This document shows, in pieces, positions 1-52,124 of a stretch of DNA of 64,000 bases. Within the stretch, counting starts at the first letter, position 1. Every line of letters starts with the position of its first letter. The stretch is from Alphaproteobacteria bacterium (lineage in GTDB: Bacteria; Pseudomonadota; Alphaproteobacteria; CBDDJK01): the NCBI GenBank assembly GCA_965229675.1, contig OZ245897.1:1185127-1249126 (forward strand), written 5' to 3'. The position numbers were made by a program, and so were the translations under genes. The notes beneath the pieces are model-generated. The model saw only the letters and a list, made by a program, of their open reading frames with translations. It did not search any database and had not been told where the DNA came from.

Positions 1-142
1 AAGATTGATGATTTTATTCAACAAGGTTTTAATATTGTGCGTGCGATCTCTCCAATCGAAGCGACACTTATGGGTGAAGCCAAACGGCTTGGCCTTTCAC
101 ACACAATCGACAATAAAGGCACAATTATTGCGATCAATTAAT
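1..142 (+). CDS. 3' end of an unidentified CDS entering the window (frame 1, stop TAA at 140-142)
   Basis: Open frame from position 1 to TAA at 140-142 (…KIDDFIQQGFNIVRAISPIEATLMGEAKRLGLSHTIDNKGTIIAIN*). No family recognised. Confidence 0.3.
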
Positions 143-171
143 CTATTGTAAAACCTATAATAGTTATATCA

Positions 172-555
172 TTAATGCGTTATGCATATTTCCGAGCGGG
201 TTAAAAAACGCATGCCAGTTCCATTATCAAGGCTGAACATTCCACCAACCCCTTTAACAGCATCGATAATTAAATCGGTGTGTTTCCAGCGTTCATATTG
301 ATCACCATTCATATAAAACGGCAAATTACCAATTTCACCAACTAACACATCATGAGGGCCTGTTTGATATTCTGCTTTTGGAAAGCACATGGGTGCCGAT
401 CCGTCACAACAACCACCAGATTGATGAAATAGCAAATCATCACCATAACGCACTTTTAGCTGATTGATAAGATCCAGTGCCGCTTCTGTAGCACTGACGG
501 TCATAACTTTTGCTTCATTGCTTTCGTCTTTACTTGTCGATTGATTTGGATGCAT
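172..555 (-). CDS. DUF779-family protein, typically paired with aldehyde dehydrogenase
   Basis: 127 aa with GGCCDGS and PMCFP motifs. It sits immediately downstream of the aldehyde dehydrogenase gene on the same strand, the arrangement DUF779 genes are known for. Confidence 0.55.
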   Translation of the reverse strand: MHPNQSTSKDESNEAKVMTVSATEAALDLINQLKVRYGDDLLFHQSGGCCDGSAPMCFPKAEYQTGPHDVLVGEIGNLPFYMNGDQYERWKHTDLIIDAVKGVGGMFSLDNGTGMRFLTRSEICITH

Positions 556-636
556 TTCTATATCTCCCTTACATATAATCGTGTTAGCAGGGTCGCTTAA
601 TGAAATTTAAACAACCCTGCTAAAATGTATTTTTGC

Positions 637-2169
637 TTAAAAGAATCCAAGCGCATTATCGCTGTAAGAAACAAGTAAATTCTTGGTCTGGCGATAATGA
701 TCAAGCATCATTTTATGATTTTCACGTCCAACCCCTGACTGTTTATAACCACCAAAGGCTGCATGCGCAGGATAAGCATGGTAACAGTTCGTCCAAACCC
801 GACCTGCTTGAATGCCGCGTCCTATTCTGAATAATAGATTTGAGTTACGAGACCACACACCAGCCCCAAGCCCATAAAGCGTATCATTGGAAATCGCCAA
901 GGCTTCGGCTTCATCTTTAAAGGTAGTAACCGATACGACAGGCCCAAAAATTTCTTCTTGAAAAATCCGCATTTTATTATGACCTTTGAAGACAGTGGGT
1001 TCAATATAATTACCATTTTCCAAGCCGCTAATCTTGGCAACATTTCCCCCTGCAAGCACTTCTGCGCCTTCCTCACGACCAAGCTTGAGGTAAGAAGAAA
1101 TTTTCTCCATCTGTTCGGTGGAAGCTTGCGCACCAATCATTGTGGTCATTTCCAATGGGTTGGCTTGCGTTACTTTATTTACACGTTCAATCGCTCGCTC
1201 CATAAATTTATCATAAATGCTTTCTTGGATAAGTGCGCGCGATGGGCAGGTGCAAACTTCCCCTTGATTGAGGGCGAACATTGTAAAGCCTTCAAGGCAT
1301 TTATCAAAAAATGCATCATCTTGATCCATCACATCTTCAAAGAAGACATTCGGAGACTTACCACCAAGTTCCAAGGTAACAGGAATGATATTCTGTGCTG
1401 CATATTGCATGATAAGACGACCTGTTGTTGTTTCTCCTGTAAAAGCAATTTTTGCAATACGATTGCTGGAAGCAAGCGGTTTTCCAGCTTCCAGTCCAAA
1501 ACCTTGAACAACATTTAAAACACCTGCGGGCAGGACATCAGCAATCAAATCCAATAATACGCAGATGGAAGCTGGCGTTTGCTCGGCAGGTTTAATCACA
1601 ACACAATTGGCTGCCGCTAAAGCTGGCGCAAGTTTCCATGTTGCCATTAAAATTGGAAAATTCCATGGAATAATTTGTCCTACTACGCCCAAAGGTTCGT
1701 GAAAATGATAGGCATAGGTACTATTATCAATTTCACAAATTGATCCTTCTTCAGCCCGAATAACCCCTGCGAAATAACGAAAATGATCGACTGCGAGTGC
1801 AATATCGGCGTTAATGGCTTCGCGAATAGGTTTCCCGTTGTCGATTGTTTCGGCTGCGGCAAGTAAATTGGTGTTGTCTTCAATAATTTGTGCAATCCTG
1901 TTTAGCATGTTGGAACGTTCAGCAAGTGAAGTTGCTCCCCATGCATCCTTAGCAGCATGCGCTGCATCAATTGCAAAATTTACATCATCCGCATTTGAAC
2001 GTGCGATCTGGCAAATAATTTCACCTGTAACAGGGGATGGATTATCAAAATATTGTCCTGATTTAGGTTCTTCCCAACGACCATTGATGAAATTACCATA
2101 TTTAGCCTTAAAAGGAAATGGAACGCCTAAATGCGATGTATCTAAGGCTTTTGAAGGTTGAATGCTCAT
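637..2169 (-). CDS. NAD(P)+-dependent aldehyde dehydrogenase
   Basis: 510 aa with the ALDH signatures [14 protein letters not shown] (catalytic Glu) and GEVCTCPSR (catalytic Cys) and the GxxxxG NAD-binding region. Confidence 0.9.
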
Positions 2170-2299
2170 ATTTAAAACTCCTCTTTTTTAAATAATTAGA
2201 TTTAAAATACTGAATTATACTCCCTCACAAAACCCAGTGTGTATAGGGAATTATGTGGAGTCAAGAGTTTTTTTAATTTTATGAAAAAACTGAATTATA

Positions 2300-2887
2300 T
2301 CAAAGCGGTAAACGGCTGGTGAGTGCGGCGCGGAGGGTGCCGTCATCTAAATAATCTAACTCTCCGCCAATTGGTACACCGTGGGCTAGCCGTGTGATTT
2401 TAAGATTAAGTGGCTCAACCATATCGCTAATATAATGGGCTGTCGTCTGTCCGTCCACAGTAAGATTGGTGGCTAATATTAATTCTTGAATGGTGCCTGC
2501 TTGCAATCTTGTTAGCAATTTATCAAGATTTAACTCTTCAGGACCAATGCCGCCAAGCGCAGATAATGAGCCACCTAGCACATGATAAAGCCCGTGATAT
2601 CCCCCTGCGCGTTCCAATGCCCACAGATCGCCAACTTCCTCCACAACGCATAAAATTTGATGATCGCGCCCGTGATCTTCACAGATTGAACACGGGCTTT
2701 GATTGTCAATATTACCACAAATTTCGCATGGGGTAATCACGGCCGAAACATGCGATAACGCATCAATCAATGGATTTAATAAACGGTCTGGTCGTTTAAT
2801 GAGCGCAAGTGCAAATCGCCTTGCCGAACGCGGACCAAGCCCTGGCATTCGTGACAATAATTTAACCAATTGATCTAGCTCTTTCAT
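2300..2887 (-). CDS. recR: Recombination protein RecR
   Basis: 195 aa with a C4 zinc finger (CEICGNIDNQSPCSICED) followed by a Toprim domain (ILCVVEEVGDLWALE). Confidence 0.9.
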   Translation of the reverse strand: MKELDQLVKLLSRMPGLGPRSARRFALALIKRPDRLLNPLIDALSHVSAVITPCEICGNIDNQSPCSICEDHGRDHQILCVVEEVGDLWALERAGGYHGLYHVLGGSLSALGGIGPEELNLDKLLTRLQAGTIQELILATNLTVDGQTTAHYISDMVEPLNLKITRLAHGVPIGGELDYLDDGTLRAALTSRLPL

Positions 2888-2898
2888 GGGTTTGTTTT

Positions 2899-3930
2899 CT
2901 AATGTGATGCTCTGGTTAATCGGTCATTAATGGCAAGTGCCAATATTTGATCGGTTGGATCATCTGTTTTGGCAATAATCGGAGCAACCGCAATCGCTGA
3001 AACCTGTTGTGGTTGATCCAGCTTATGTAAATAATGAAAAAGATTCGCCGCAGCTTCAATCAACTTTCCTTGAGGCGATAAGTTTTCACTTAAAGTAGCG
3101 TCATGGTTATGATCTTTTCCAAAGCCAAGCCAAGCTTCCCCAGCATTTGGTGCCTCTGCATTTAATCGTAATGGCGTTGCAGGCGCATAATGACGTAACA
3201 TCTGACCTGGACTTTTAAAAGAATTGCATTCAGCATTTTTAATATCAAGGGGTGGGAGGGCAATCTTAAAGCCTAATAAAGTTTCAAATTGTGATAGCGG
3301 CTGGGTTCCAGCACGTAGCAGGCATGGTGCATTATGGTCTGTTAAATCGATGATTGTACTTTCCAAGCCCGCTTCACAATTTCCGCCATCCAAAATAAGT
3401 GGAAGCTGATCCCCAAAATCAGCCACAACATGCGCCGCACGGGTGGGACTTAAACGCCCACTTGGATTCGCACTTGGTGCGGCAATTGGCTTTCCAAAGG
3501 CGCGAATAAGATCACGCGCACCTTTATGGGCTGGCATACGCACCGCAATCGATTTTAATCCAGCCGTAACAAGATTGGAGATTGGCGCACCCTCTTTCAA
3601 TGGTAACACCAATGTCAACGGCCCTGGCCAACCTTGTGCCATAATGCGTTTAGCAGATTGTGATACATCAATAATGGGAGCCAACATATCAAGATCACTG
3701 ATATGGATAATTAATGGATTAAAGGCAGGGCGACCTTTAACTTTATATATTTCTGCAATCGCTTGATCGTTTGTCGCATCACCGCCAAGCCCATAGACCG
3801 TTTCAGTAGAAAAAGCGACAATTCCCCCCTGCTTTAACAGCTGGACAGCCTTGTTTATACCAATAGCATCAAATTTACAGATTTCGGTCATGAATACGCC
3901 AGATGATTGGATAAAGCAGTCCACCCGCAA
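2899..3930 (-). CDS. tsaC: L-threonylcarbamoyladenylate synthase, Sua5/YrdC type with a Sua5 C-terminal domain
   Basis: YrdC-fold motif GGIVAFSTETVYGLGGDATN. At 343 aa the length indicates the Sua5 form. The likely true start is the internal Met at 3891 (MTEICKF), which reduces the overlap with the upstream rhomboid gene. Confidence 0.8.
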   Translation of the reverse strand: MRVDCFIQSSGVFMTEICKFDAIGINKAVQLLKQGGIVAFSTETVYGLGGDATNDQAIAEIYKVKGRPAFNPLIIHISDLDMLAPIIDVSQSAKRIMAQGWPGPLTLVLPLKEGAPISNLVTAGLKSIAVRMPAHKGARDLIRAFGKPIAAPSANPSGRLSPTRAAHVVADFGDQLPLILDGGNCEAGLESTIIDLTDHNAPCLLRAGTQPLSQFETLLGFKIALPPLDIKNAECNSFKSPGQMLRHYAPATPLRLNAEAPNAGEAWLGFGKDHNHDATLSENLSPQGKLIEAAANLFHYLHKLDQPQQVSAIAVAPIIAKTDDPTDQILALAINDRLTRASH

Positions 3931-4564
3931 TCAACCCGCCAATATGTGCCTGCCAAGCAATCTGCCCCATTTTGCCTACTCCCCCTTCCATAAGTATTGA
4001 AAGGCCATTAAACACAAGAAAGACAATTAGCATCATTAACGCATTGCGGCGATTGGCAAATAGGGATTCAACAGGCGGATTATGGTTGCGTCGTCGCCAA
4101 AGAATAGGCTGCAATAACGCCCCTAATAGGCCGCTAACGCCACCACTTATCCCAATTGCAGGTGCATAAGGATCACTTGCAAGATAGGTATAACATAGCC
4201 CACCACCAATGACCGAACCAACAAGCAAAAACAACCAATTTAGTGGCGATAAGCGTCTTGCAAGTGGGCTACCAAACGCCATCAAAAATCCACAATTTAT
4301 TAAAAGATGAAATAAATCACCATGCAATAATCCATGTGTTGCTAACGGTAAAATTGAGGTGAAAACGTTAAATAATTCTGGATTACGTACCTGTTCAGGG
4401 ATCAGCAACATGCTTTCAAAAATCATTAAATGAATAGCCCCTAACCAGCTTGACCAATCTGGGGCAGATAGTCTTAACATGAATTGCACCCCATAAATTA
4501 TGATCAGAACCAGCACAGAATATTTAACAATTTCAGGCAAATTAAAGATTGGTTGAGGCTTCAT
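3875..4564 (-). CDS. Rhomboid-family intramembrane serine protease
   Basis: Multi-TM protein with the GxSG catalytic motif (GISGGVSGLLGA) and the downstream catalytic His in AHIGGLIAGG. The start MKPQPIF at 4564 overlaps the azlD stop in an ATGA arrangement. Confidence 0.75.
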   Translation of the reverse strand: MKPQPIFNLPEIVKYSVLVLIIIYGVQFMLRLSAPDWSSWLGAIHLMIFESMLLIPEQVRNPELFNVFTSILPLATHGLLHGDLFHLLINCGFLMAFGSPLARRLSPLNWLFLLVGSVIGGGLCYTYLASDPYAPAIGISGGVSGLLGALLQPILWRRRNHNPPVESLFANRRNALMMLIVFLVFNGLSILMEGGVGKMGQIAWQAHIGGLIAGGLLYPIIWRIHDRNL

Positions 4565-12376: not shown

Positions 12377-14118
12377 TTAAAACTTAAAGTCAATTTGTAA
12401 CTTAGCGGTGTTATGTGCTTCGCTATCATTAAAACTAGGATTATGGGTAAGGTCAACTGCACCCATTAGCCTATCATTCAAACTATTAAATTTTAATCCC
12501 ATGCCAAAGATTTGTCCACTTGTATCGGTGAAATTCGATTTCAAATAAGGACTGGCGATGCCGATATTTTGCTGATTATTAGCATTGACATTGAAGCCAT
12601 AGGCAATAAGACCAGACAGATTATATTCACTATAATCATTGCGTCCAACAACACCAGATGATTCTAATGTTCCAGACCATCCAATATCATCGGATGCAAT
12701 AAGCACGCCACCGCCAATATTGAACGCCCCACTATCGCCATTGGTTTTATCGGTGAAATCATGCAAATAATCTGTTTTGAAAAATGGCTGAATGGTAGCA
12801 TCACCCGATGTCGTGCGATAGGAAATTTCAATCCCCGGTCTCAGTTGTCTAGTATTACTGGTTTCGCTATCGACCACTGTTCCATCACTTTCGCTATAGC
12901 CATCATTTTTCTTGCGGGCGAATAAAAAACCAAGGCGTGGTTTTAATTCTAATCCCTGATTAGCTAAAGGCGTAAATTTACCTTCGGCCAGAATATCAGC
13001 GAACCAGTTTATAGAGTTTGTGTTACTGGTCACCGTTTCATTATCGCGGTTTTGATTAATAGAACCATGAGCATAACCTGCCATGGCAGTAATGGATAAA
13101 TCAGGTCGCACACGATAAAGTGCATAGGGTGTTATTGACTTGCTTGTTTCGTCATAATCACCATCGTTAAAATTGGTGGTAAGGTTGGTTTCGCTATACC
13201 CTACGCTTACGCCAGCGGTTAGGCGATCATTATAACGATAATCCCCACCTAAATTATAGCCCCAAACATCACCAGAATAAGCCCCATCAGCACTATCATT
13301 ATCAACATTTGACTGATTGGCCTGCCCCCAAATTGTGAAACGGCGATTATCCAGCTCTAGTCTTTGTTGATCTGGCATACCAGTGGTATCCCCATCTGTG
13401 GACAAAATTAAATCATTGCTGTTAAATGATAATTTATTAAATAATTCACGCAAATCGCCTTGACGATAGGTAAGTTCATCATTTGCCGACAAGGAAGTTG
13501 CAAAACCTGTATTTTGTGTGGTTAACGCACCAATACCAGCAGACAAATTACTTAAATGGCTTTGCACATTATTGACCGTCACATTGGTCTGTGAACGCGA
13601 AATAGACGCAAACATATTGGTTCGTGAAGATATATAATGGGCAGAATCACCCGGAACACTACATGTTGCCGAAACGCTGTAAGAAAAATTCAAATTATTA
13701 AGGGCACTGATCATAAAACTGCTGCCCTCTTTCTCAATTGTATATGAATATGCTTGACTATCTTTTCGGTTCAATGTGAGGACTGCTATCTCATCTCCAT
13801 CATTTATAAAATCATTTGTATCTGTATAATAAATAGCTACATCAACCGAAGCTGCGCTCGAACTGTCATCTCTGGGACGCTCTACTGTAAACGTAATCCT
13901 CTCCCCGACAAACAACCCCCGATCATTATAAAAAACACGCAGATAATAATACTGACCATCAAAACCATTTTCAATAAAATCAGGTTCAGAAGTGAAGTTA
14001 GCACACCCCTCCGATATGGCCCAAGCGGGATTAGGTAGGGAAGTTACCCCCCCCCGCAAATCAGGGCGGTTAACGCCAATTTGGCAAAATTTTTCTTCAA
14101 ATGGTTAAAGCTAAGCAC
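12377..14118 (-). CDS. Autotransporter (type Va) outer-membrane protein whose signal-peptide coding region is interrupted by a +1 frameshift in a G9 homopolymer (candidate phase-variable gene, currently OFF)
   Basis: The C-terminal ~280 aa form an autotransporter beta-barrel ending KLQIDFKF with a terminal aromatic residue. The annotated frame 12377-14059 has no signal peptide. A second frame starts at GTG 14118 with a GAGG ribosome-binding site 7 nt upstream and encodes MLSFNHLKKNFAKLALTALICGGG before hitting TAA directly after the G9 tract (plus-strand C run 14047-14055). A G10 or G7 tract would fuse this signal peptide in frame to …VTSLPNPAWA|ISEG (AxA cleavage site). Confidence 0.7.
14047..14055 (-). 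repeat. Homopolymeric G9 tract (C9 on plus strand), a slipped-strand mispairing site within the autotransporter 5' coding region
   Basis: Nine consecutive C residues on the plus strand. Frame analysis shows the tract separates the signal-peptide frame from the mature-protein frame. Confidence 0.8.
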
Positions 14119-45089: not shown

Positions 45090-46234
45090 AAAAATCTCCA
45101 GCCGTAGAATTATTTATTTAAATTTAAACAGACTAAATATTTTAATGATTTCGCCCTAAAACACAAGCCTATAATGATTAAATTTTAACAACCATATAAT
45201 AAAACCTAAGCAATGAAACAGTGAAACAAACTGTTTAAAAGAAAACGACCCAAGAAATATTGCTTTTTTTACTTGACTTTTAAATTTTAATAGTGTTGTA
45301 TCATAAATAGCGGCTTTGTTAAGGCGTTTGACTGGAGAGAGAGTTTTAATAATCCAGCTCAAATGTTCTGATTGTTGGAGGTCGTTTATAATAGCAACAG
45401 AATTTGTTGTTATTTTAATCAAGTTGCATCTTAAGCTTCCCAGAAGGGATGCCGGAGGCGGGTTGATTAGCTTGATGATAGAGAGAGGATAGAAGTTCAT
45501 CGCTTGCATCTATAATTAAAGCAAAAAATATTTTGATTTTTATTTAACGGCAAGAATTAGCCGCAAAATCAAAGTAACTTGGCTTATAGTATGTTGTAGG
45601 AAATGATCTTTGTCATTGTTTTGGATTCTTTTGGGTCAATTTGACTTTAAAGAATTTTTTAATCTTCTTTTTTAATCATGAGCTTAATCAACATCAAATA
45701 ATTTTGATAAATTATTTGGTTCCATTCTGGTAACCCGTAGGGAAATCCTAGATAATTTATCGAAGTTGACATATATGATCGACTGGCCATATGGTTCCAG
45801 TCTGTCTTTCTGAATTGGAGTTGAGAGGCCAGTTTGAAAAGTCAATCATATAAATTGTTAAGGCATGTTTATTAGGAATTTGATTGCCTGTCTGCTTCGA
45901 TTGATATCTTTTTCTTTTTCCTTCTTTTAATTGCCAGATATCGGAATTAAACCCGCCATTTTACCATATATGTCGATTGCGACAGTTATTTATGGTAGCA
46001 TTTGATTGAGTGGCCTCCATGATTTTCATCAGGACGTTGGGTGGATATTTGATCAAAAAAACTAGTCTTTTTTATGCGCTATAAAGCTGGAGTGTTTTCA
46101 GCAAAAATGATTGTCAGTTTTGCGTTTTGAAAATACGAAAAAATAAACTGAGTGGAGTGTTTTTTTTACTAAACAATGTTTAGATAAAAACGCTTTAAAA
46201 AACGAGAACGTTTTTACGAAAAGAGAGAGAAAAA

Positions 46235-47125
46235 ATGGCTAGAGAAATCAATTTAAATTCATCCCAGCGGGATGTTTTACTTCAACTGCGCAATGTTGAT
46301 CGGCTTGCGGATCGTACTAATGAACGCCTTAGTACTGGCGAAAAGGTCAATTCAATTACCGATGATGCAATTGCTTATTTTCAGGCTTTTGCCTTGGATG
46401 GGCGTGCAGAATTGCTTACAGGTAAAAAAACTGAAATTGATCAGGGCGTATCAGCAATTTCAGCATCGATTGATGCAATTGAATCAGTCAATGATTTGCT
46501 GGATACGATGAAAGGCATTGCAGAATCTATTGCAACGCAAACTACGGCTGAGAAAGTAAGTTCAACCGAACAATTTAATGAAATTGGCAATCAGATATCT
46601 AGTTTGATTGAGGATGCGTCTTATAATGGTATCAATTTACTTAATTCAACGGCAAATTCATTGGATGTTTCTTTTTCAGACCGTGCAGGTTCGGAGCTAA
46701 ATTTAGCAGGCGCAGATCTAAATTCAACTACGGTTAGCGATGCTGCCCTCTTTGAGAATGTTGCGTTTGATTCTAACTTAGATTTCTTGGGCGTTTCAAC
46801 ATTAGGCGTGAATATCCAAGGATTTTCAGTTGCAACCACCAGTGATATCGATACAATTACACAAAGTATAGATGACGCAGTTTCAAGACTTCAAAGCTTG
46901 GCAAATTCTTATGGAAGCTATGTTTCTGTGCTTGAGTCGCGCTCTGAATTTACAGAAAATTATATTTCAACCTTGGAAGAGGGAGCGGATAAGCTAACAT
47001 TAGCGGATCTTGATGAAGAATCGGCCAATTTAACGGCGTTGCAAACCCGTCAAGAGCTTAGTGTTGAAACGCTAGCAATTTCTGGTGAGATGGAGCGTTA
47101 TACATTGAAATTATTAACCGATTAA
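46235..47125 (+). CDS. Flagellin (short, Caulobacter-type, about 30 kDa)
   Basis: 296 aa whose N-terminal (…RLSTGEKVNSITDDAIAYF…) and C-terminal (…LTALQTRQELSVETLAISG…) helical segments match the conserved flagellin D0/D1 regions, with an FNGxxLL-like core (YNGINLLNS). No other flagellar genes are in the window. Confidence 0.7.
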   Translation: MAREINLNSSQRDVLLQLRNVDRLADRTNERLSTGEKVNSITDDAIAYFQAFALDGRAELLTGKKTEIDQGVSAISASIDAIESVNDLLDTMKGIAESIATQTTAEKVSSTEQFNEIGNQISSLIEDASYNGINLLNSTANSLDVSFSDRAGSELNLAGADLNSTTVSDAALFENVAFDSNLDFLGVSTLGVNIQGFSVATTSDIDTITQSIDDAVSRLQSLANSYGSYVSVLESRSEFTENYISTLEEGADKLTLADLDEESANLTALQTRQELSVETLAISGEMERYTLKLLTD

Positions 47126-47172
47126 GCTAAACAAAATCCGTTTTTTAATCATTTTTATGTAAAGGGCGGATT

Positions 47173-49005
47173 ATGTGTGGCATTATTGGGATCGTTGGTA
47201 ACAAGCCCGTTAGCGAACGCTTGCTGCAGGGCTTGCGGCGGCTTGAATATCGCGGTTATGATTCAACGGGCATGGCGTGTCTTAGCGATGGTAAGATTGC
47301 GCTTAGAAGGGCGGAGGGGAAAATCTCCGCCCTAGAAGCCGTATTAAACGATCATCCAATGGATGGGCTTGATGGGATTGGCCATACCAGATGGGCAACC
47401 CATGGCCCGCCCACGCTTAATAATGCCCATCCGCATTGTACCGATCAATTGGCCTTGGTGCATAATGGCATTATTGAAAATTTTGATGTGTTGCGGGATT
47501 CTTTAAGCGCACAAGGAATTACCTATCAATCTGAAACAGATAGCGAGGTGGTTGCGCATTTAATCAGCAATCAGCTAAAGCAAAATAACGACCCGATTAT
47601 GGCGGTGCAGGCCGTTTTGCCACAGCTACAAGGTGCATTTGCCCTAGCCATCTTATTTGCGGATCATGACGGACTATTGATTGGCGCAAGGCGTGGCAGT
47701 CCGCTTGCCATTGGCTATGGCGAGGGGGAGATGTATCTGGGTTCAGATGCGATGGCCTTAGCCCCTTTCACGGATCGTATGAGCTTTCTTGAAGAAGGCG
47801 ATTGGGTCGTCCTAACCCGTGATAAAGCAAACCTGTTTGATAAAAATAATCAACCTGTTGAACGGTCGATTATCACCCATCGCTTAGGATTTGGTGCGGT
47901 TGAAAAAGGCAATTATCGGCATTTCATGGAAAAAGAAATCCATGAACAGCCAGGGGTGTTATCTGAAACCTTGCAAAGCCTTGTGCTTCAAGATTCAATG
48001 TCGCTTTATCTTCCTGATTTTCCCTTCACAGTTGATCGACTTCCTAAAATAACTGCCAGTGCGTGCGGTACCGCCTTTTATGCGTGTATGGTCGCCAAAT
48101 ATTGGGTTGAACAATTATCAGGCATCGCGGTTGAGGTCGATATTGCCTCCGAATTGCGCTATCGCAACTTGCCGCTTCCTCAAGATGGGGTGGCTTTATT
48201 TGTTAGCCAATCTGGTGAAACTATGGATAGTTTGGAAGCATTACGCCACGCAAAAACACAGCAGCAGAAAATCCTGTCCATTGTCAATGTTCCGCAAAGC
48301 ACCATTATGCGCGAATCCGATTATGCGTTACTGACCCATGCAGGGCCTGAAATTGGTGTCGCCTCAACCAAGGCCTTTACGACCCAGCTAATGGTGTTGG
48401 CATGCCTTGCCATCCAGCTTGGGCGGGTGACCAACCGCCTATCTGCCGATCATGAACAAAGATTGGTGAAATCGCTAATTGAACTCCCTGGCTTGATGCA
48501 AGAATTATTGGTGCGTTGGCAAGAAATTGGCGAGCTTGCAGGGCTATTGGCCGATGCGCGCGCTGTCTTTTATATGGGGCGTGGGCGATGCTATCCAATC
48601 GCGCTTGAAGGTGCCTTAAAATTAAAGGAAATCAGCTATATCCACGCAGAAGGCTATGCGGCAGGCGAGATGAAACATGGCCCTATCGCGCTTATTGATG
48701 ACCAGCTTCCCGTGGTGATGTTAGCCCCATCAGGCCAGCTTTTGGAAAAATTATCCGCAAATGTTCAGGAAATCGTTGCGCGTAAAGGCAAAGTGATTTT
48801 AATCGCAGATAAGCAAGCCGCCGATTATATCCATCGCCAAACCACACCAGAAGCAACCTTAATCATGCCAACCCTTTCCGAATCCTTATTTGCGCCAATG
48901 CTTTATTCATTACCGATGCAAATCTTAGCCTATGAAACCGCCCTCATCAAAGGCACAGACATCGACCAACCCCGCAACCTTGCAAAATCCGTTACCGTGG
49001 AGTAG
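47173..49005 (+). CDS. glmS: Glutamine--fructose-6-phosphate aminotransferase
   Basis: 610 aa starting MCGIIG (the N-terminal Cys nucleophile) with two SIS domains and the C-terminus …AKSVTVE. Confidence 0.95.
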   Translation: MCGIIGIVGNKPVSERLLQGLRRLEYRGYDSTGMACLSDGKIALRRAEGKISALEAVLNDHPMDGLDGIGHTRWATHGPPTLNNAHPHCTDQLALVHNGIIENFDVLRDSLSAQGITYQSETDSEVVAHLISNQLKQNNDPIMAVQAVLPQLQGAFALAILFADHDGLLIGARRGSPLAIGYGEGEMYLGSDAMALAPFTDRMSFLEEGDWVVLTRDKANLFDKNNQPVERSIITHRLGFGAVEKGNYRHFMEKEIHEQPGVLSETLQSLVLQDSMSLYLPDFPFTVDRLPKITASACGTAFYACMVAKYWVEQLSGIAVEVDIASELRYRNLPLPQDGVALFVSQSGETMDSLEALRHAKTQQQKILSIVNVPQSTIMRESDYALLTHAGPEIGVASTKAFTTQLMVLACLAIQLGRVTNRLSADHEQRLVKSLIELPGLMQELLVRWQEIGELAGLLADARAVFYMGRGRCYPIALEGALKLKEISYIHAEGYAAGEMKHGPIALIDDQLPVVMLAPSGQLLEKLSANVQEIVARKGKVILIADKQAADYIHRQTTPEATLIMPTLSESLFAPMLYSLPMQILAYETALIKGTDIDQPRNLAKSVTVE

Positions 49006-49007
49006 TG

Positions 49008-49223
49008 CTGTGGGTACGCAAGATTGCCTACCATTTTCGTAAAAAGTTGCTCTATTTAATTGAATCATTCTGGTTGTATGCAAAAAGAAGGCTGGCTAAA
49101 TTTAATGGATTAACGGATGAAAAATTCTATCTCCACCTCAAAGAATGCGAATGGAGATTTAATAATAGACAAGGAAATGTTTATAAGATATTGTTAAACG
49201 AATTTAGAAAAAATCCACTCTAA
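49008..49223 (+). mobile_element. 3' remnant of an IS1595-family (ISXO2-like) transposase gene
   Basis: About 70 aa (…IESFWLYAKRRLAKFNGLTDEKFYLHLKECEWRFNNRQGNVYKILL…) matching the conserved C-terminal tail of IS1595 transposases (…EGFWSLLKR…HLPLYLAEFCFRYNNRK…). It begins immediately after the glmS stop, and the DDE core is absent. Confidence 0.55.
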
Positions 49224-49225
49224 AA

Positions 49226-49936
49226 TTGTCTAGACCCATGAAAATTATTTATTATTCCAGTTTACTCTTCTATCTTTTATTGGGAGTACCTTCTTATTCT
49301 GCTGATTTTAATAAAGGATTAACTGCTGCTCAAAATGGAGACTTCGCAACGGCGTTGAAGGAATGGAAACCTCTTGCTGAACAAGGAGATGCATATGCAC
49401 AGTATAATCTAGGAGTGGCGTACGACAACGGAGATGGTGTTCCCCAGGATTATAAAGAAGCAGTTCGATGGTACAGACTTGCTGCGGAACAGAGACATGC
49501 AAATGCACAGTATAATCTAGGAGTGGCGTACGACAACGGAGATGGTGTTCCCCAAGATTATAAAGAAGCAGTTCGATGGTACAGACTTGCTGCGGAACAG
49601 AGACATGCAAATGCACAGTATAATCTAGGAGTGTCGTACACCAAAGGAGAGGGAGTTCCCCAAGATTATAAAGAAGCAGTTCGATGGTACACGCTTGCTG
49701 CTGAACAAGGAGAGGCAGATGCACAGAATAATTTGGCAAATCGTTACTATTACGGGGAGGGTGTTATTAAAGATATTGTTTATGCACATATGTGGAAAAA
49801 TATTTCTGCTTCAAATGGAATTGATGAAGCAAGAGAAGACTTAAAAGCATTTGAAAAGGAAATGACCTCATCCCAGAAAGAAGAAGCACAAAGACTTGCT
49901 AGAGAATGTGTAAAGAAGGACTACAAGGGTTGTTGA
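49226..49936 (+). CDS. Secreted Sel1-like repeat (SLR/TPR-like) protein
   Basis: 236 aa with a signal peptide (MSRPMKIIYYSSLLFYLLLGVPSYSA) and at least 4 Sel1 repeats (AQYNLGVAYDNGDGVPQDYKEAVRWYRLAAEQ…). Confidence 0.8.
   Translation: MSRPMKIIYYSSLLFYLLLGVPSYSADFNKGLTAAQNGDFATALKEWKPLAEQGDAYAQYNLGVAYDNGDGVPQDYKEAVRWYRLAAEQRHANAQYNLGVAYDNGDGVPQDYKEAVRWYRLAAEQRHANAQYNLGVSYTKGEGVPQDYKEAVRWYTLAAEQGEADAQNNLANRYYYGEGVIKDIVYAHMWKNISASNGIDEAREDLKAFEKEMTSSQKEEAQRLARECVKKDYKGC
49397..49720 (+). repeat. Three tandem 108-bp repeats encoding the Sel1 units
   Basis: The units starting at 49397 and 49505 differ by about 1 nt. The unit starting at 49613 is divergent. Confidence 0.8.
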
Positions 49937-50008
49937 ACCTTTCTGAGATTATAATCCCTCAAACATTTTAACCAAAGTCTTATCAACTACCTTCAAACTA
50001 AAATCTGA

Positions 50009-50302
50009 CCTTACCTCGGTCATCAAGGCAATATCAGTCAAGCATTTGAGGTTGATGGATATCATAAAGAAAATCAAATAGTGTTAGAAATTGAATCGGG
50101 ACGCGCGTATACTAATCATCAATTTATAAAAGATATTTTTGAGGCAAGTGTGATGGTTGATGTGAAATATTTAGTTCTTGCTGTAAGAACGATTTATAAT
50201 GGGCATGAAGATTATAAAAAAATTACTGATTGGTTAGATACATTATTTATTACAAATAGAATAAAATTGGATCTAAAAGGAATTTTGGTGATAGGTTATT
50301 AA
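50009..50302 (+). pseudogene. C-terminal fragment of a BamHI/BglII-like type II restriction endonuclease
   Basis: The frame opens after TGA at 50006-50008 and reads …FEVDGYHKENQIVLEIESGRAYTNHQF…DVKYLVLAV…GILVIGY. This aligns by eye with the BamHI catalytic core (IDVY…MEFETGN…DLAIILMP…FIFIGF). The N-terminal ~85 aa and any methyltransferase gene are absent. Confidence 0.45.
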
Positions 50303-50391
50303 CTGACAACTAAAATTATTATCCAATTTGAAACCTTCCATAACAGTGGACTAGCACTATTTGTTTTAACCCTTAACCAAGGAATGATGCG

Positions 50392-51069
50392 ATGCAATTA
50401 GGGATAATAGGGGGAATTGGTCCAGCAGCGACCGATTATTATTACAGGAAGCTTATCAGTAAGTTTGCCACAGAACATGAGTCGCTGGACATGACCATCG
50501 TTCATGCGGACACCCCAACCCTGCTTGATAATTTGGAAAAAGGTAACATTGATGCGCAAGTTGAAATTTATACCCGCCTTACCAATAGGCTTGCGTCAGC
50601 AGGGGCAAGTTGCGTTGCCGTTACCTCGATTGCAGGGCATTTTTGTATCGAAACATTTGCTACAAATTCACCGCTTCCCGTGATTAATATGCTGTCTTGT
50701 GTTGAAGATGAAGTTGCAAGGCGCGGATATAATAAAATCGGCATAATCGGCACAAAGACTGTGATGGAGTCAAGATTCTATTCTGGCATATCCTCCGCTG
50801 AGGTGGTGATTCCCAGCGGGACTTTATTGGATGAAGTGCATCTTGCTTATATTGACATGGCAAAAGCAGGCGCGGTTAATGATGCACAACGCAGCATTTT
50901 TGATCATGCTTGCCATCAGTTTTTTAGTGAAATGAAAACTGATGCTGTGATGTTAGGGGGAACAGACCTCGCCCTTGTCTATTCAAAACAAACAAGCGAT
51001 TTTGAATTAATTGATTGCGCAGAAATCCATGTTGACGCATTATTTAACCATTTTAAAACCAATAAATGA
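50392..51069 (+). CDS. Asp/Glu/hydantoin-racemase superfamily protein
   Basis: 225 aa starting MQLGIIGGIGPAATDYYYRKL, with two Cys-containing half-sites typical of the family. Confidence 0.7.
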   Translation: MQLGIIGGIGPAATDYYYRKLISKFATEHESLDMTIVHADTPTLLDNLEKGNIDAQVEIYTRLTNRLASAGASCVAVTSIAGHFCIETFATNSPLPVINMLSCVEDEVARRGYNKIGIIGTKTVMESRFYSGISSAEVVIPSGTLLDEVHLAYIDMAKAGAVNDAQRSIFDHACHQFFSEMKTDAVMLGGTDLALVYSKQTSDFELIDCAEIHVDALFNHFKTNK

Positions 51070-51110
51070 TCTTTCGTACCAAGCTTATATAGAATATGAG
51101 ATAGAAAAAA

Positions 51111-52124
51111 ATGCAAAACACAGTAGCCCTATCTTTAGAAGAATTATCAGCAATAATTGACGCATGTTTAAGGCATAATGGGTCGGATGCGGTGAATGCG
51201 GCGGCGATTACAAGGAATATGGTGTGGGCAGAGGCAAGTGGTAGTGTATCGCACGGTATATTCAGATTGCCTGGCTATATTGCCTCCTTAAAAAGCGGTA
51301 AGGCGAATGGAAAGGCGAACCCTCAAACAGAAATTTTAACCCCCTCCATCATCAAGGTCGATGCTAATCATGGCTTTGCACCGCTAGCGCAGGAGGTAGG
51401 ACATCAACAGCTTGCCCCAATGGCAAAAAAGCAAGGAATCGCTGCTTTATCCATCCGTAATTGCTTTCATTTTGCAGCCCTTTGGGTGGAAATAGAAAGG
51501 CTGACCAATGAAGGGCTTTGTGCCTTTGCAACCACGGCCGCGACACCGATGGTTGCGCCAGCAGGTGGGATCCATCCTTTCTTTGGGACGAATCCAATTG
51601 CGTTTGGCTGGCCACGTAAAGATAAACATGCCGTGATTTTTGATATGGCTACGGCCGCAACCGCACGCGGTGAATTATTAATTGCCGCCCGTGATGGTCA
51701 CCAAGCCCCCGCTGGTGCTGGGCTTGATAAAGATGGGCAACCAACCACAGACCCACACGCAATTTTGGATGGGGCGCAGCTACCTTTCGGGGGGTATAAG
51801 GGGTCTGCCATTGCCATGATGGTTGAGTTGTTAGCAGGCGCTTTGATCGGTGATCTGTTCAGCTATGAATCGGGTGCGGTGGATAATAATGATGGCGGCC
51901 CGCCCCTTGGCGGAGAATTGATTATCGCCATGAATCCTGCCCGTTTCAGCGATATAGATTTTGACGCACATGCTGAAAACTTCTTTGCCGAACTTACCAA
52001 ACAAGCCGCCATTCACCTCCCTGGTAGTAACCGCTATGCCATGCGTGAAAAAAACAAACATGGGGGCGTTACAATCCCCAAATCACTTTATAATGAAGTT
52101 ATGACCTTAACAGGCCATTCTTAA
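51111..52124 (+). CDS. Ldh_2-family (malate/L-lactate dehydrogenase type 2) oxidoreductase, e.g. ketimine/pyrroline-2-carboxylate reductase-like
   Basis: 337 aa with an Ldh_2 family N-terminus (…SHGIFRLPGY…) and a His-rich active region. Confidence 0.65.
   Translation: MQNTVALSLEELSAIIDACLRHNGSDAVNAAAITRNMVWAEASGSVSHGIFRLPGYIASLKSGKANGKANPQTEILTPSIIKVDANHGFAPLAQEVGHQQLAPMAKKQGIAALSIRNCFHFAALWVEIERLTNEGLCAFATTAATPMVAPAGGIHPFFGTNPIAFGWPRKDKHAVIFDMATAATARGELLIAARDGHQAPAGAGLDKDGQPTTDPHAILDGAQLPFGGYKGSAIAMMVELLAGALIGDLFSYESGAVDNNDGGPPLGGELIIAMNPARFSDIDFDAHAENFFAELTKQAAIHLPGSNRYAMREKNKHGGVTIPKSLYNEVMTLTGHS

Follow-up and report, generated by a model that had tools for sequence, protein, structure and literature searches.

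In a 64,000-nucleotide (nt) stretch of an alphaproteobacterial genome (GenBank assembly GCA_965229675.1, contig OZ245897.1, positions 1,185,127 to 1,249,126 of the forward strand; 'the window' hereafter, whose own numbering is used throughout), the glmS gene is followed by a ~1.35-kb patch of gene remnants (49006-50354) that lies between the true end of glmS and a degenerate second copy of that end. The open reading frames (ORFs) downstream of glmS are a 72-amino acid (aa) ORF (49005-49223), a Sel1-repeat gene that runs to 49936, an open frame at 50009-50302 and, from 50392, a gene of the Asp/Glu racemase family. The initial annotation had taken the first three for unrelated elements abutting with gaps of 0-3 nt, namely the tail of an IS1595-family transposase, a secreted Sel1-repeat protein and a fragment of a BamHI/BglII-like restriction endonuclease, left behind by repeated insertion and deletion at the 3' side of glmS. 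We compared the patch with relatives (the loci numbered L, e.g. L172, L101 and L088, and P0001, the full-length reference relative of the nuclease); as a general idea, that insertions and deletions have scarred the DNA 3' of glmS was upheld, and the parts were redrawn as follows (IS, insertion sequence; att, putative attachment site, with attL and attR its left and right forms).

47173-49005, + strand: glmS, intact, 610 aa, C-terminus NLAKSVTVE-stop (from the ORF and its translation)
48989-49005, + strand: putative attL core, formed by the final 17 nt of glmS (CCGTTACCGTGGAGTAG) and bounding the patch on the left
49006-49062, + strand: left arm (P') and leader of a Sel1 mini-element, 91% identical to L172, not IS-derived
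49059-49237, + strand: 3' remnant of an IS1595-family element, with the last ~54 transposase codons, the stop at 49221-49223 and the right inverted repeat
49238-49936, + strand: Sel1-repeat gene, intact, 232 aa, likely start ATG 49238
49949-50017, - strand: remnant of a small Recombinase-domain ORF in the 3' flank of the Sel1 element, last 22 codons and stop
50018-50302, + strand: nuclease pseudogene, residues 75-168 of a 168-aa family (56% of the protein)
50303-50354, + strand: tail of the nuclease cassette and putative attR, an element-type arm followed by the degenerate glmS-end copy
50319-50332, + strand: element-type arm of the putative attR, TTATCCAATTTGAA
50325-50354 (core 50338-50354), + strand: degenerate glmS-end copy, NLKPSITVD-stop, with the core CCATAACAGTGGACTAG
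50392-51069, + strand: Asp/Glu racemase-family gene (Pfam Asp_Glu_race, E 2e-23), host-like in GC (guanine plus cytosine) content

At the level of homology the gaps are 53 nt between glmS and the IS, 0 nt between the IS and Sel1 and 81 nt between Sel1 and the nuclease fragment, not 0-3 nt, and the 81 nt hold a fourth remnant, the small ORF. A foreign origin of the patch is supported by its low GC content, 30-36% at 48950-49399 (IS tail) and at 49700-50449 (in and after the nuclease fragment) compared to 42.7% for the whole window. Most probably the patch is what remains of an array of two small integrative cassettes, now decayed, whose attachment site overlaps with the stop codon of glmS.

The two boundaries of the patch resemble each other. 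The pattern NL..S[VI]TV[ED] followed by a stop occurs at only two places in the six-frame translation of the 64-kb window, the true glmS end (48976) and the second copy (50325), and of the 17 nt that close the second copy, 13 agree with the glmS end, a score that no other site in the window attains. The same arrangement recurs, with intact contents, at other loci. The 97-aa peptide of the nuclease fragment has 23 close homologues with a full length of 168 aa (the closest, P0001, at 92% identity), and an intact nuclease gene begins 5-8 nt after the real glmS stop in L088 and L090; in L089 and L101, which lack an upstream glmS, it keeps the same distance from a glmS-end copy. Loci without glmS, L089 being an example, are thus among those with glmS-end copies. 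In L088-L090 the 168-aa nuclease cassette closes in another glmS-end copy, and the homology shared by the window, L088, L089, L090 and L101 runs ~52 nt past the nuclease stop and ends at this copy, which reads NLNPSITVE-stop in L088 and L089. Since the right-hand copy of the window is ~88% similar to the L088 and L089 copies, like the rest of the cassette, it travels with the cassette. In the distant L081 the nuclease gene lies 11 nt after the real glmS stop, and in L092 a DUF3427/HNH_2 gene is interposed between glmS and the nuclease gene. Across 514 kb of nuclease-family loci, read on both strands, the motif [ST][VI][TA]V[ED]-stop occurs 11 times, always on the + strand and within L081 and L088-L092, with up to three occurrences per locus and one per cassette boundary; L088, L089 and L092, like L172, each have several copies at such boundaries.

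The cassettes are far more alike than the GlmS proteins of the loci that carry them. GlmS of the carrier loci is 36-48% identical to that of the window, and between L088 and L090 the C-termini of GlmS share 47% identity, whereas the nuclease cassettes of L090 and L089 are 82% and 94% identical to P0001. The nuclease fragment of the window is likewise 89.6% identical to L088 at the DNA level, yet the two GlmS proteins share only ~42% identity. Near-identical cassettes that begin at the same nucleotide after glmS, beside diverged GlmS, argue for horizontal, site-specific spread, and on the same figures we rejected a conserved, vertically inherited glmS-nuclease gene pair. An integron was also rejected: the boundaries are glmS-end copies and not attC-like, and no IntI was seen, although no dedicated attC model was used. 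A second glmS-end-like match in L026, 9.8 kb downstream of glmS, was judged to be due to chance, the intervening genes being housekeeping genes.

The other unit of the array is a Sel1 mini-element. Positions 48986-49062 of the window correspond to L172 635-711 (91% identity), a stretch made up of a glmS-end copy (TQSVTVE-stop) and then the Sel1 leader; in view of this match, 49006-49062 is the arm and leader of the Sel1 element and not part of the IS, and the first ~18 codons of the 72-aa ORF are leader sequence. A hairpin resembling a terminator lies at 49010-49031, and, by eye, ACGCAAGATT in the left arm and AATCTTGCGT in the right arm of the L172 element are inverted complements. Beyond the IS, 49241-50017 corresponds to L172 744-1413 with 87.5% DNA identity (49483-50017 matching L172 879-1413). 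In L172 the Sel1 unit is intact and flanked by glmS-end copies, the closing one at 1703-1717, and Sel1 homologues adjoin recombinase genes in both L172 and L173. The description of the Sel1 gene as intact was borne out: it has four Sel1 repeats (Pfam PF08238, E 3e-46, 154.6 bits against a cut-off of 30.7 bits) and an N-terminus that by eye resembles a signal peptide. A tandem repeat with a 108-nt unit also runs through the gene (49375-49732; 3.3 copies, 91% matches), and two of its copies are nearly identical. As its homologues are mostly 197 aa long (at most 71% identity) and the 232-aa window protein is one repeat longer, the window gene appears to have gained one repeat recently. It is the sole intact gene left in the patch and would probably be transcribed by read-through from glmS or from the IS end, where a promoter-like site lies at 49166-49194. 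In L022, a metagenome-assembled genome of the Rhodospirillaceae, a Sel1-repeat gene (12615-13091) 31-37% identical to that of the window lies ~0.8 kb downstream of glmS; this may be chance or may be another glmS-linked cargo.

On the opposite strand, behind the Sel1 gene, lies what is left of the small ORF, whose translation EVRSDFSLKVVDKTLVKMFEGL (then stop) aligns with the end of the L172 product, EVRSDFSLEVIDKTLVNMFEG (then stop). In L172 this ORF is 88 aa long and carries just a part of the serine-recombinase domain 'Recombinase' (PF07508, E 3e-7); L101 matches it over its full length with 74% identity, L174 over 83 residues with 47% identity, and at the DNA level 49958-50017 corresponds to L101 2093-2152 (88% identity). 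We had considered a third degenerate att copy at 49995-50015 and rejected it, L101 and L172 having the 3' end of the small ORF there. The ORF is open in three unrelated contigs at 47-74% identity (L172 1348-1614, - strand; L101 2090-2356, - strand; L174 6001-6249, + strand) and always adjoins a glmS-end att copy, in an orientation relative to that copy that differs between loci. It may be a functional accessory protein, e.g. a directionality factor, rather than debris.

How the two units came to abut can be read from L101, in which a Sel1 cassette and a nuclease cassette stand side by side. Window positions 50018-50344 correspond to L101 2703-3025, and the two segments that meet at 50017/50018 in the window lie ~550 bp apart in L101, where the intervening DNA comprises the remainder of the small ORF, then an att copy (2445-2459) and codons 1-74 of the nuclease gene. 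Given this arrangement, the junction 50017/50018 marks a deletion within an array of two units. The Sel1 and nuclease genes, adjacent in L101 and intact separately in L172 and in L088-L090, are parts of one cassette array and not the unrelated elements that they were first taken for.

The IS is the sole unrelated, later insertion in the patch. The presence of an IS1595-family transposase tail without its DDE core was confirmed: the 72-aa ORF matches the NCBIfam IS1595 model NF033547 (E 4.6e-6) at profile positions 174-215 of 215, i.e. at the extreme C-terminus, and both catalytic aspartates are missing. The match scores 26.6 bits, under the cut-off of 75 bits, that to Pfam PF12762 has an E value of 0.24, and only the C-terminal ~54 residues are involved. 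Most of the 118 homologues of the peptide (best identity 87%) carry PF12762. Protein and DNA alignments agree that the IS homology starts at ~49059, at 'IESFW', so that of the ~70 codons at first ascribed to the transposase only ~54 are IS-derived. Inverted repeats had not been identified previously, but comparison with L169, L170 and L171, with whose right ends the IS aligns, reveals an intact right inverted repeat, CTAAAATTGTCTAGACCC, at 49220-49237, touching the Sel1 ATG at 49238. L169 carries a complete 737-bp relative with perfect 19-nt terminal inverted repeats, the right one overlapping the transposase stop codon as it does in the window, and the L171 contig terminates at precisely the right-end sequence of the window IS (...TCTAGACCC). 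The terminal motif GTCTAGACCC occurs once in the window with no second match, and a protein search of the 64-kb window returned no other transposase copy. Unlike the complete IS1595-family element, the window retains only the last ~179 nt; the left ~560 bp, including the left inverted repeat, are gone, and a target duplication is not readable because the left end is missing. Compared to L172, the window lacks 27 nt of Sel1 leader, in whose place the IS remnant stands, and a 4-nt microhomology, ATTG (49059-49062), marks the deletion junction between leader and IS. Among known elements, its nearest counterpart is the IS1016-type subgroup of IS1595 (~700-745 bp).

Two features of these IS relatives may be recorded. 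Most database homologues of the tail are ~105-aa 'half' transposases starting with MPIIQGK, and the reading frame of the complete 737-bp element in L169 (4642-5318) is split into ORFs of 76 and 105 aa, which suggests that this IS1595 subgroup either uses programmed frameshifting, as IS1 does, or has undergone widespread pseudogenisation. The L169 element adjoins a type II CRISPR-Cas locus (1-4532) encoding a 1113-aa HNH_4 protein, Cas1 and Cas2.

The relatives point to a large serine recombinase (LSR) as the putative site-specific agent. A search of viral contigs with the small ORF led to L174, which encodes a 601-aa LSR with Resolvase, Recombinase and Zn_ribbon domains and has the core CCATCACTGTGGAGTAG inside the 3' end of the LSR gene, followed by the small-ORF homologue. 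A search with the core pattern led to L179, where an LSR is accompanied by a 52-bp attP, AATTGTCCAATCCGAA-GTAATCAGTTACTGTGGAGTAG-TTCGGATTGGACAATT, with perfect 16-nt inverted arms. The left arm of this attP, TTGTCCAATCCGAA, recurs at the same 22-nt spacing in the right-hand copies of nuclease cassettes; the arm of the right-hand copy reads TTGTCCAATCTGAA in L088 and TTATCCAATTTGAA in the window, the latter matching the L179 left arm at 11 of 14 positions. The third locus, L045, is an alphaproteobacterial glmS locus from the synteny set and carries a complete 6.1-kb element at the glmS stop. On its left the stop is followed by GTTCCAACGGGGGTAT, and on its right the sequence reads ATACCCCCGTTGGAAA-N8-GTCACCGTGGAGTAA; as these arms are reverse complements of each other, we regard them as attL and attR. 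Encoded inside it are a 558-aa LSR, with 56% identity to that of L174, an IS3-type transposase, a T5orf172 protein and one unknown protein. In NCBIfam the L174 LSR is matched best by CcrB (E 5e-24, 85 bits against a cut-off of 900), CcrA and XisF, all far below their cut-offs. The sequence to the right of the att core is similar in L089 (TTTGGGTATAGGGTAG) and L174 (TTTGGTTAGATAGTAAG), and the cassette that follows the nuclease gene in L089 may derive from an L174-type element.

These elements can be assembled into a history of the patch. LSR elements, or cassettes mobilised by them in trans, would recombine an attP that mimics the end of glmS with the genuine one; after integration the host gene stands undamaged to the left and a glmS-end copy supplied by the element to the right, as is seen in the relatives, where repeated integrations have stacked units head to tail. 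The array would have been acquired from low-GC marine bacteria, in the presumed order glmS, Sel1 mini-element (leader, Sel1 gene and small ORF on the opposite strand), att copy, 168-aa nuclease cassette, att copy and racemase gene. Later, in a presumed order, a ~737-bp IS1595-family element inserted directly before the Sel1 ATG; a deletion of ~590 bp, with the ATTG microhomology at its junction, took away 27 nt of leader together with ~560 bp of the IS; another, of ~550 bp, cost the array its internal att copy, the greater part of the small ORF and nuclease codons 1-74; and one Sel1 repeat was duplicated. With no recombinase in the window and the internal att copy gone, the unit would no longer be mobile. 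Before integration the empty site would be expected to read ...CCGTTACCGTGGAGTAG, joined directly to CACTATTTGTTTTAACC..., i.e. 49005 joined to 50355.

Several observations weigh against this history. (i) Within the window the flanking repeat is weak: over 30 nt it matches at 18 positions, which is not significant, the value being equalled or exceeded at 13 other window positions, so that the case for att boundaries rests on the other loci. (ii) A phmmer search of the 64-kb window with four recombinase queries, which is of limited sensitivity, found no recombinase, and all that remains is the 22-codon remnant of the small Recombinase-domain ORF, which faces the att copies in one orientation in L172/L101 and in another in L174. 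(iii) Only one of 80 alphaproteobacterial glmS loci from species representatives carries such an element. (iv) L081 has no recognisable right-hand copy after its nuclease gene, and the P' (left) arm of the nuclease cassette is only loosely complementary to the right arm. (v) No contig encodes the exact GlmS of the window, and as the closest GlmS scanned is only 59% identical, no empty-site allele was found.

The first two of these points are also what would be expected from at least three independent illegitimate insertions at a permissive intergenic site without any site-specific machinery, the second glmS-end copy being due to chance or a by-product of repair. We consider such a series of accidents improbable: the same boundaries recur in hosts whose GlmS proteins are 47% identical, the right-hand copy shares the similarity of the rest of the cassette to L088 and L089 (~88%), and a canonical attP (L179) as well as matching attL and attR (L045) lie beside LSR genes.

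To weigh a second alternative, in which the nuclease is itself the mobile agent, the nuclease family has to be described. The claim that the fragment is a C-terminal part with the D...ExE residues, devoid of its N-terminus and of a methyltransferase, held, except that it amounts to 56% of the protein and not two-thirds. E59, D87, E98 and E100 are invariant in an alignment of 65 sequences; the fragment retains D87, E98 and E100 but lacks E59, and the first in-frame start codon (GTG 50081) lies past D87. The loss of E59 and the position of this start codon make the window gene a pseudogene. An AlphaFold2 model of full-length P0001 (predicted local distance difference test, pLDDT, 90.6; predicted template modelling score, pTM, 0.88) was compared with the Protein Data Bank (PDB) by Foldseek, which returned BglII (1d2i; E 8e-4, probability 1.0) and OkrAI (3odh; E 3e-3), with template modelling (TM) scores of 0.54-0.59 and probabilities of 0.99-1.0; the next match had an E value of 0.78, and BamHI was not among the 50 matches listed. 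OkrAI is a sequence relative of BamHI. By sequence or profile, in contrast, the family shows no similarity to BamHI, BglII or OkrAI (Pfam and NCBIfam models; PDB by phmmer and hmmsearch), hhalign of nuclease profiles built from 13 and 65 sequences against BamHI gave probabilities of 0.2-0.3 (the BamHI sequence used is identical to PDB 1bam), and no Pfam, NCBIfam or PADLOC model matches the family. As all sequence-profile comparisons were negative, the label 'BamHI/BglII-like' is valid for the predicted fold only; judged by profile similarity, on which the initial annotation had staked it, the restriction-enzyme half of the finding would be refuted, yet the fold search speaks for it. The spacing of the family pattern E59...D87...E98-x-E100 resembles that in BamHI (E77...D94...E111-x-E113) and in BglII, and the predicted fold of P0001 matches both BglII and OkrAI, from which, as from BamHI, the family differs in the lack of sequence or profile similarity and in being only 168 aa long.

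In its genomic surroundings the family is akin to type II restriction enzymes in one respect: among 127 immediate neighbours at family loci, 21 are 5-methylcytosine (m5C) methyltransferases (PF00145) and 12 are Vsr, with a further 12 being AIPR proteins. It departs from them in that the nuclease of the closest clade, marine and low in GC, usually stands alone, without a methyltransferase (none was found in the patch, nor among the immediate neighbours examined in L088, L090 and L092), and in that the family also occurs downstream of AIPR/MzaE genes. Its neighbours (m5C methyltransferases, Vsr and AIPR/MzaE) mark it as a nuclease family of defence islands. At about ten loci (L136, L137, L147, L151, L155, L158, L160, L162, L165 and L167) a large gene of ~790-825 aa ends 7-8 nt before the nuclease gene; AIPR proteins make up 12 of the 62 upstream neighbours of nuclease genes, and a short ORF of ~120-170 aa often follows the nuclease. 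In L136, whose AIPR protein is the only one that was scanned against PADLOC, the large gene matches MzaE and the short ORF is Vsr. This pairing of large gene and nuclease is a second recurrent context, distinct from the glmS cassettes.

Acting as a free-standing homing endonuclease, the 168-aa protein would cut naive glmS ends and copy its own gene into the break, an idea that accords with the ~580-bp single-gene cassettes without methyltransferase in L088-L090, with the start of the nuclease gene a few nt after the glmS stop or a glmS-end copy, and with the predicted PD-(D/E)XK-type fold. It is nonetheless highly improbable. Cassettes with other cargo (Sel1, a DUF3427/HNH_2 protein or an OGFr_N-like protein) and no such nuclease have the same boundaries, which is what chiefly speaks against homing; moreover, the flanks of the different hosts have no common homology to support repair-mediated copying, and elsewhere the family keeps the company of m5C methyltransferases, Vsr and AIPR/MzaE, like a defence nuclease.

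glmS is the classic attachment site of Tn7 (attTn7), and the patch had been linked to Tn7 on this account, i.e. TnsD-directed insertion at attTn7 would have left cargo behind after decay of the transposon. The TGTGGG in the first bases past the glmS stop indeed resembles a Tn7 terminus, but it is part of an arm whose inverted complement forms the opposite end of the Sel1 element. A search for Tn7-end motifs at the patch was negative (no match to the right-end motif with up to 3 mismatches), there are no terminal inverted repeats in the patch, and, every part of the 1.35 kb being otherwise assigned, tns genes would find no room in it and have left no remnant there. Foreign DNA starts at the glmS stop and not ~25 bp downstream, the boundaries are ~17-nt core copies with element arms instead of a 5-bp duplication, and the relatives carry LSRs, not Tns proteins. 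A Tn7 origin is thus largely refuted, with barely any probability left to it. Just as improbable is an assembly chimera, in which foreign reads were joined into the contig: the drop in GC is sharp and all close relatives come from metagenomes of other organisms, but host-type sequence lies on both sides, the left junction at the glmS stop is the very boundary point that follows the L172 glmS-end copy and the right one follows the att copy, and the segments are 9-14% diverged from their closest metagenomic relatives rather than being copies of a co-assembled contig.

As to the host flanks, the best relatives of the window GlmS among the scanned GTDB species-representative genomes are alphaproteobacterial, at no more than 59% identity. 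The racemase gene belongs to the host flank and probably adjoined glmS originally: among 80 alphaproteobacterial genomes compared for glmS synteny, L054 and L061 have a gene of the racemase family (22-24% identity) 54-108 nt past the aligned glmS end and L049 has one ~620 nt past it, which lends the adjacency weak support. An Rfam scan of 46000-52000 returned no match, and promoter and terminator scans gave matches at the level of consensus only. Elsewhere in the window, the 1.1 kb at 45090-46234, between a divergent 450-aa gene (function not identified) and a flagellin gene, contain no ORF of at least 60 aa save one implausible 117-aa frame and have a GC content of 28-35%, which is unusually long and AT-rich for intergenic DNA.

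The array of cassettes at the glmS stop can be set beside several known systems. The staphylococcal cassette chromosome (SCC, including SCCmec) is integrated by the large serine recombinases CcrAB or CcrC at an attB in the 3' end of rlmH/orfX. Akin to SCC, the cassettes sit at the 3' end of a conserved housekeeping gene (here glmS) that is kept intact, direct gene-end repeats bound the units, tandem arrays include units without a recombinase, and CcrB and CcrA are the best NCBIfam matches of the L174 LSR. In contrast to SCC, the target is the glmS stop, the hosts are marine Gram-negatives and the units are as small as one gene (~580 bp); with the CcrB match at 85 bits against a cut-off of 900, the LSRs are not Ccr orthologues. 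Additive flexible genomic islands such as those of Methylophilaceae, which are bounded by repeats of a tRNA gene 3' end of ~20 nt (PMC10872708), likewise place variable cassettes beside a conserved gene, with gene-end copies at the boundaries, in streamlined aquatic bacteria. They differ from the cassettes described here, which use the end of a protein gene with a translatable mimic of its last ~10 codons, and to which an LSR and not a tyrosine recombinase is linked. Tn7 shares with the LSR elements the use of the glmS 3' end as a safe harbour, in what looks like convergent use of the end of a conserved essential gene, but transposes by TnsABCD with a 5-bp duplication ~25 bp past the stop, and none of these features is found in the patch.

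We put forward, tentatively and with somewhat less than even confidence, a broader proposal: that a widespread and so far undescribed family of marine LSR elements, whose attP mimics the last glmS codons, integrates at the glmS stop in distant bacteria, converging on the Tn7 landmark and building integron- or SCC-like arrays of very small, often single-gene, recombinase-less and trans-mobilised cassettes, one of which would carry a new 168-aa nuclease of predicted BglII fold without a methyltransferase. No description of LSR integration at glmS was found in the literature searched (open-access text), which is no proof of novelty.

Locally, the patch is a scar without active function in which a single cargo gene has survived, and its importance for the biology of this organism is accordingly small. 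Its wider meaning lies in what it points to, namely a glmS-targeting system other than Tn7 that is apparently undescribed in the literature searched; with an LSR implicated, the glmS 3' end appears to be a safe harbour of which two unrelated mobility systems, Tn7 and these elements, make independent use. The 168-aa nuclease family, small, confidently predicted in its fold and linked to defence islands with m5C methyltransferases, Vsr or Mza-type genes, may represent a new kind of nuclease for restriction or defence. Should recombination with the conserved glmS end by the L045, L174 and L179 LSRs prove real, these enzymes would be natural integrases for which most bacteria already have an attB, and as such of interest for genome engineering.

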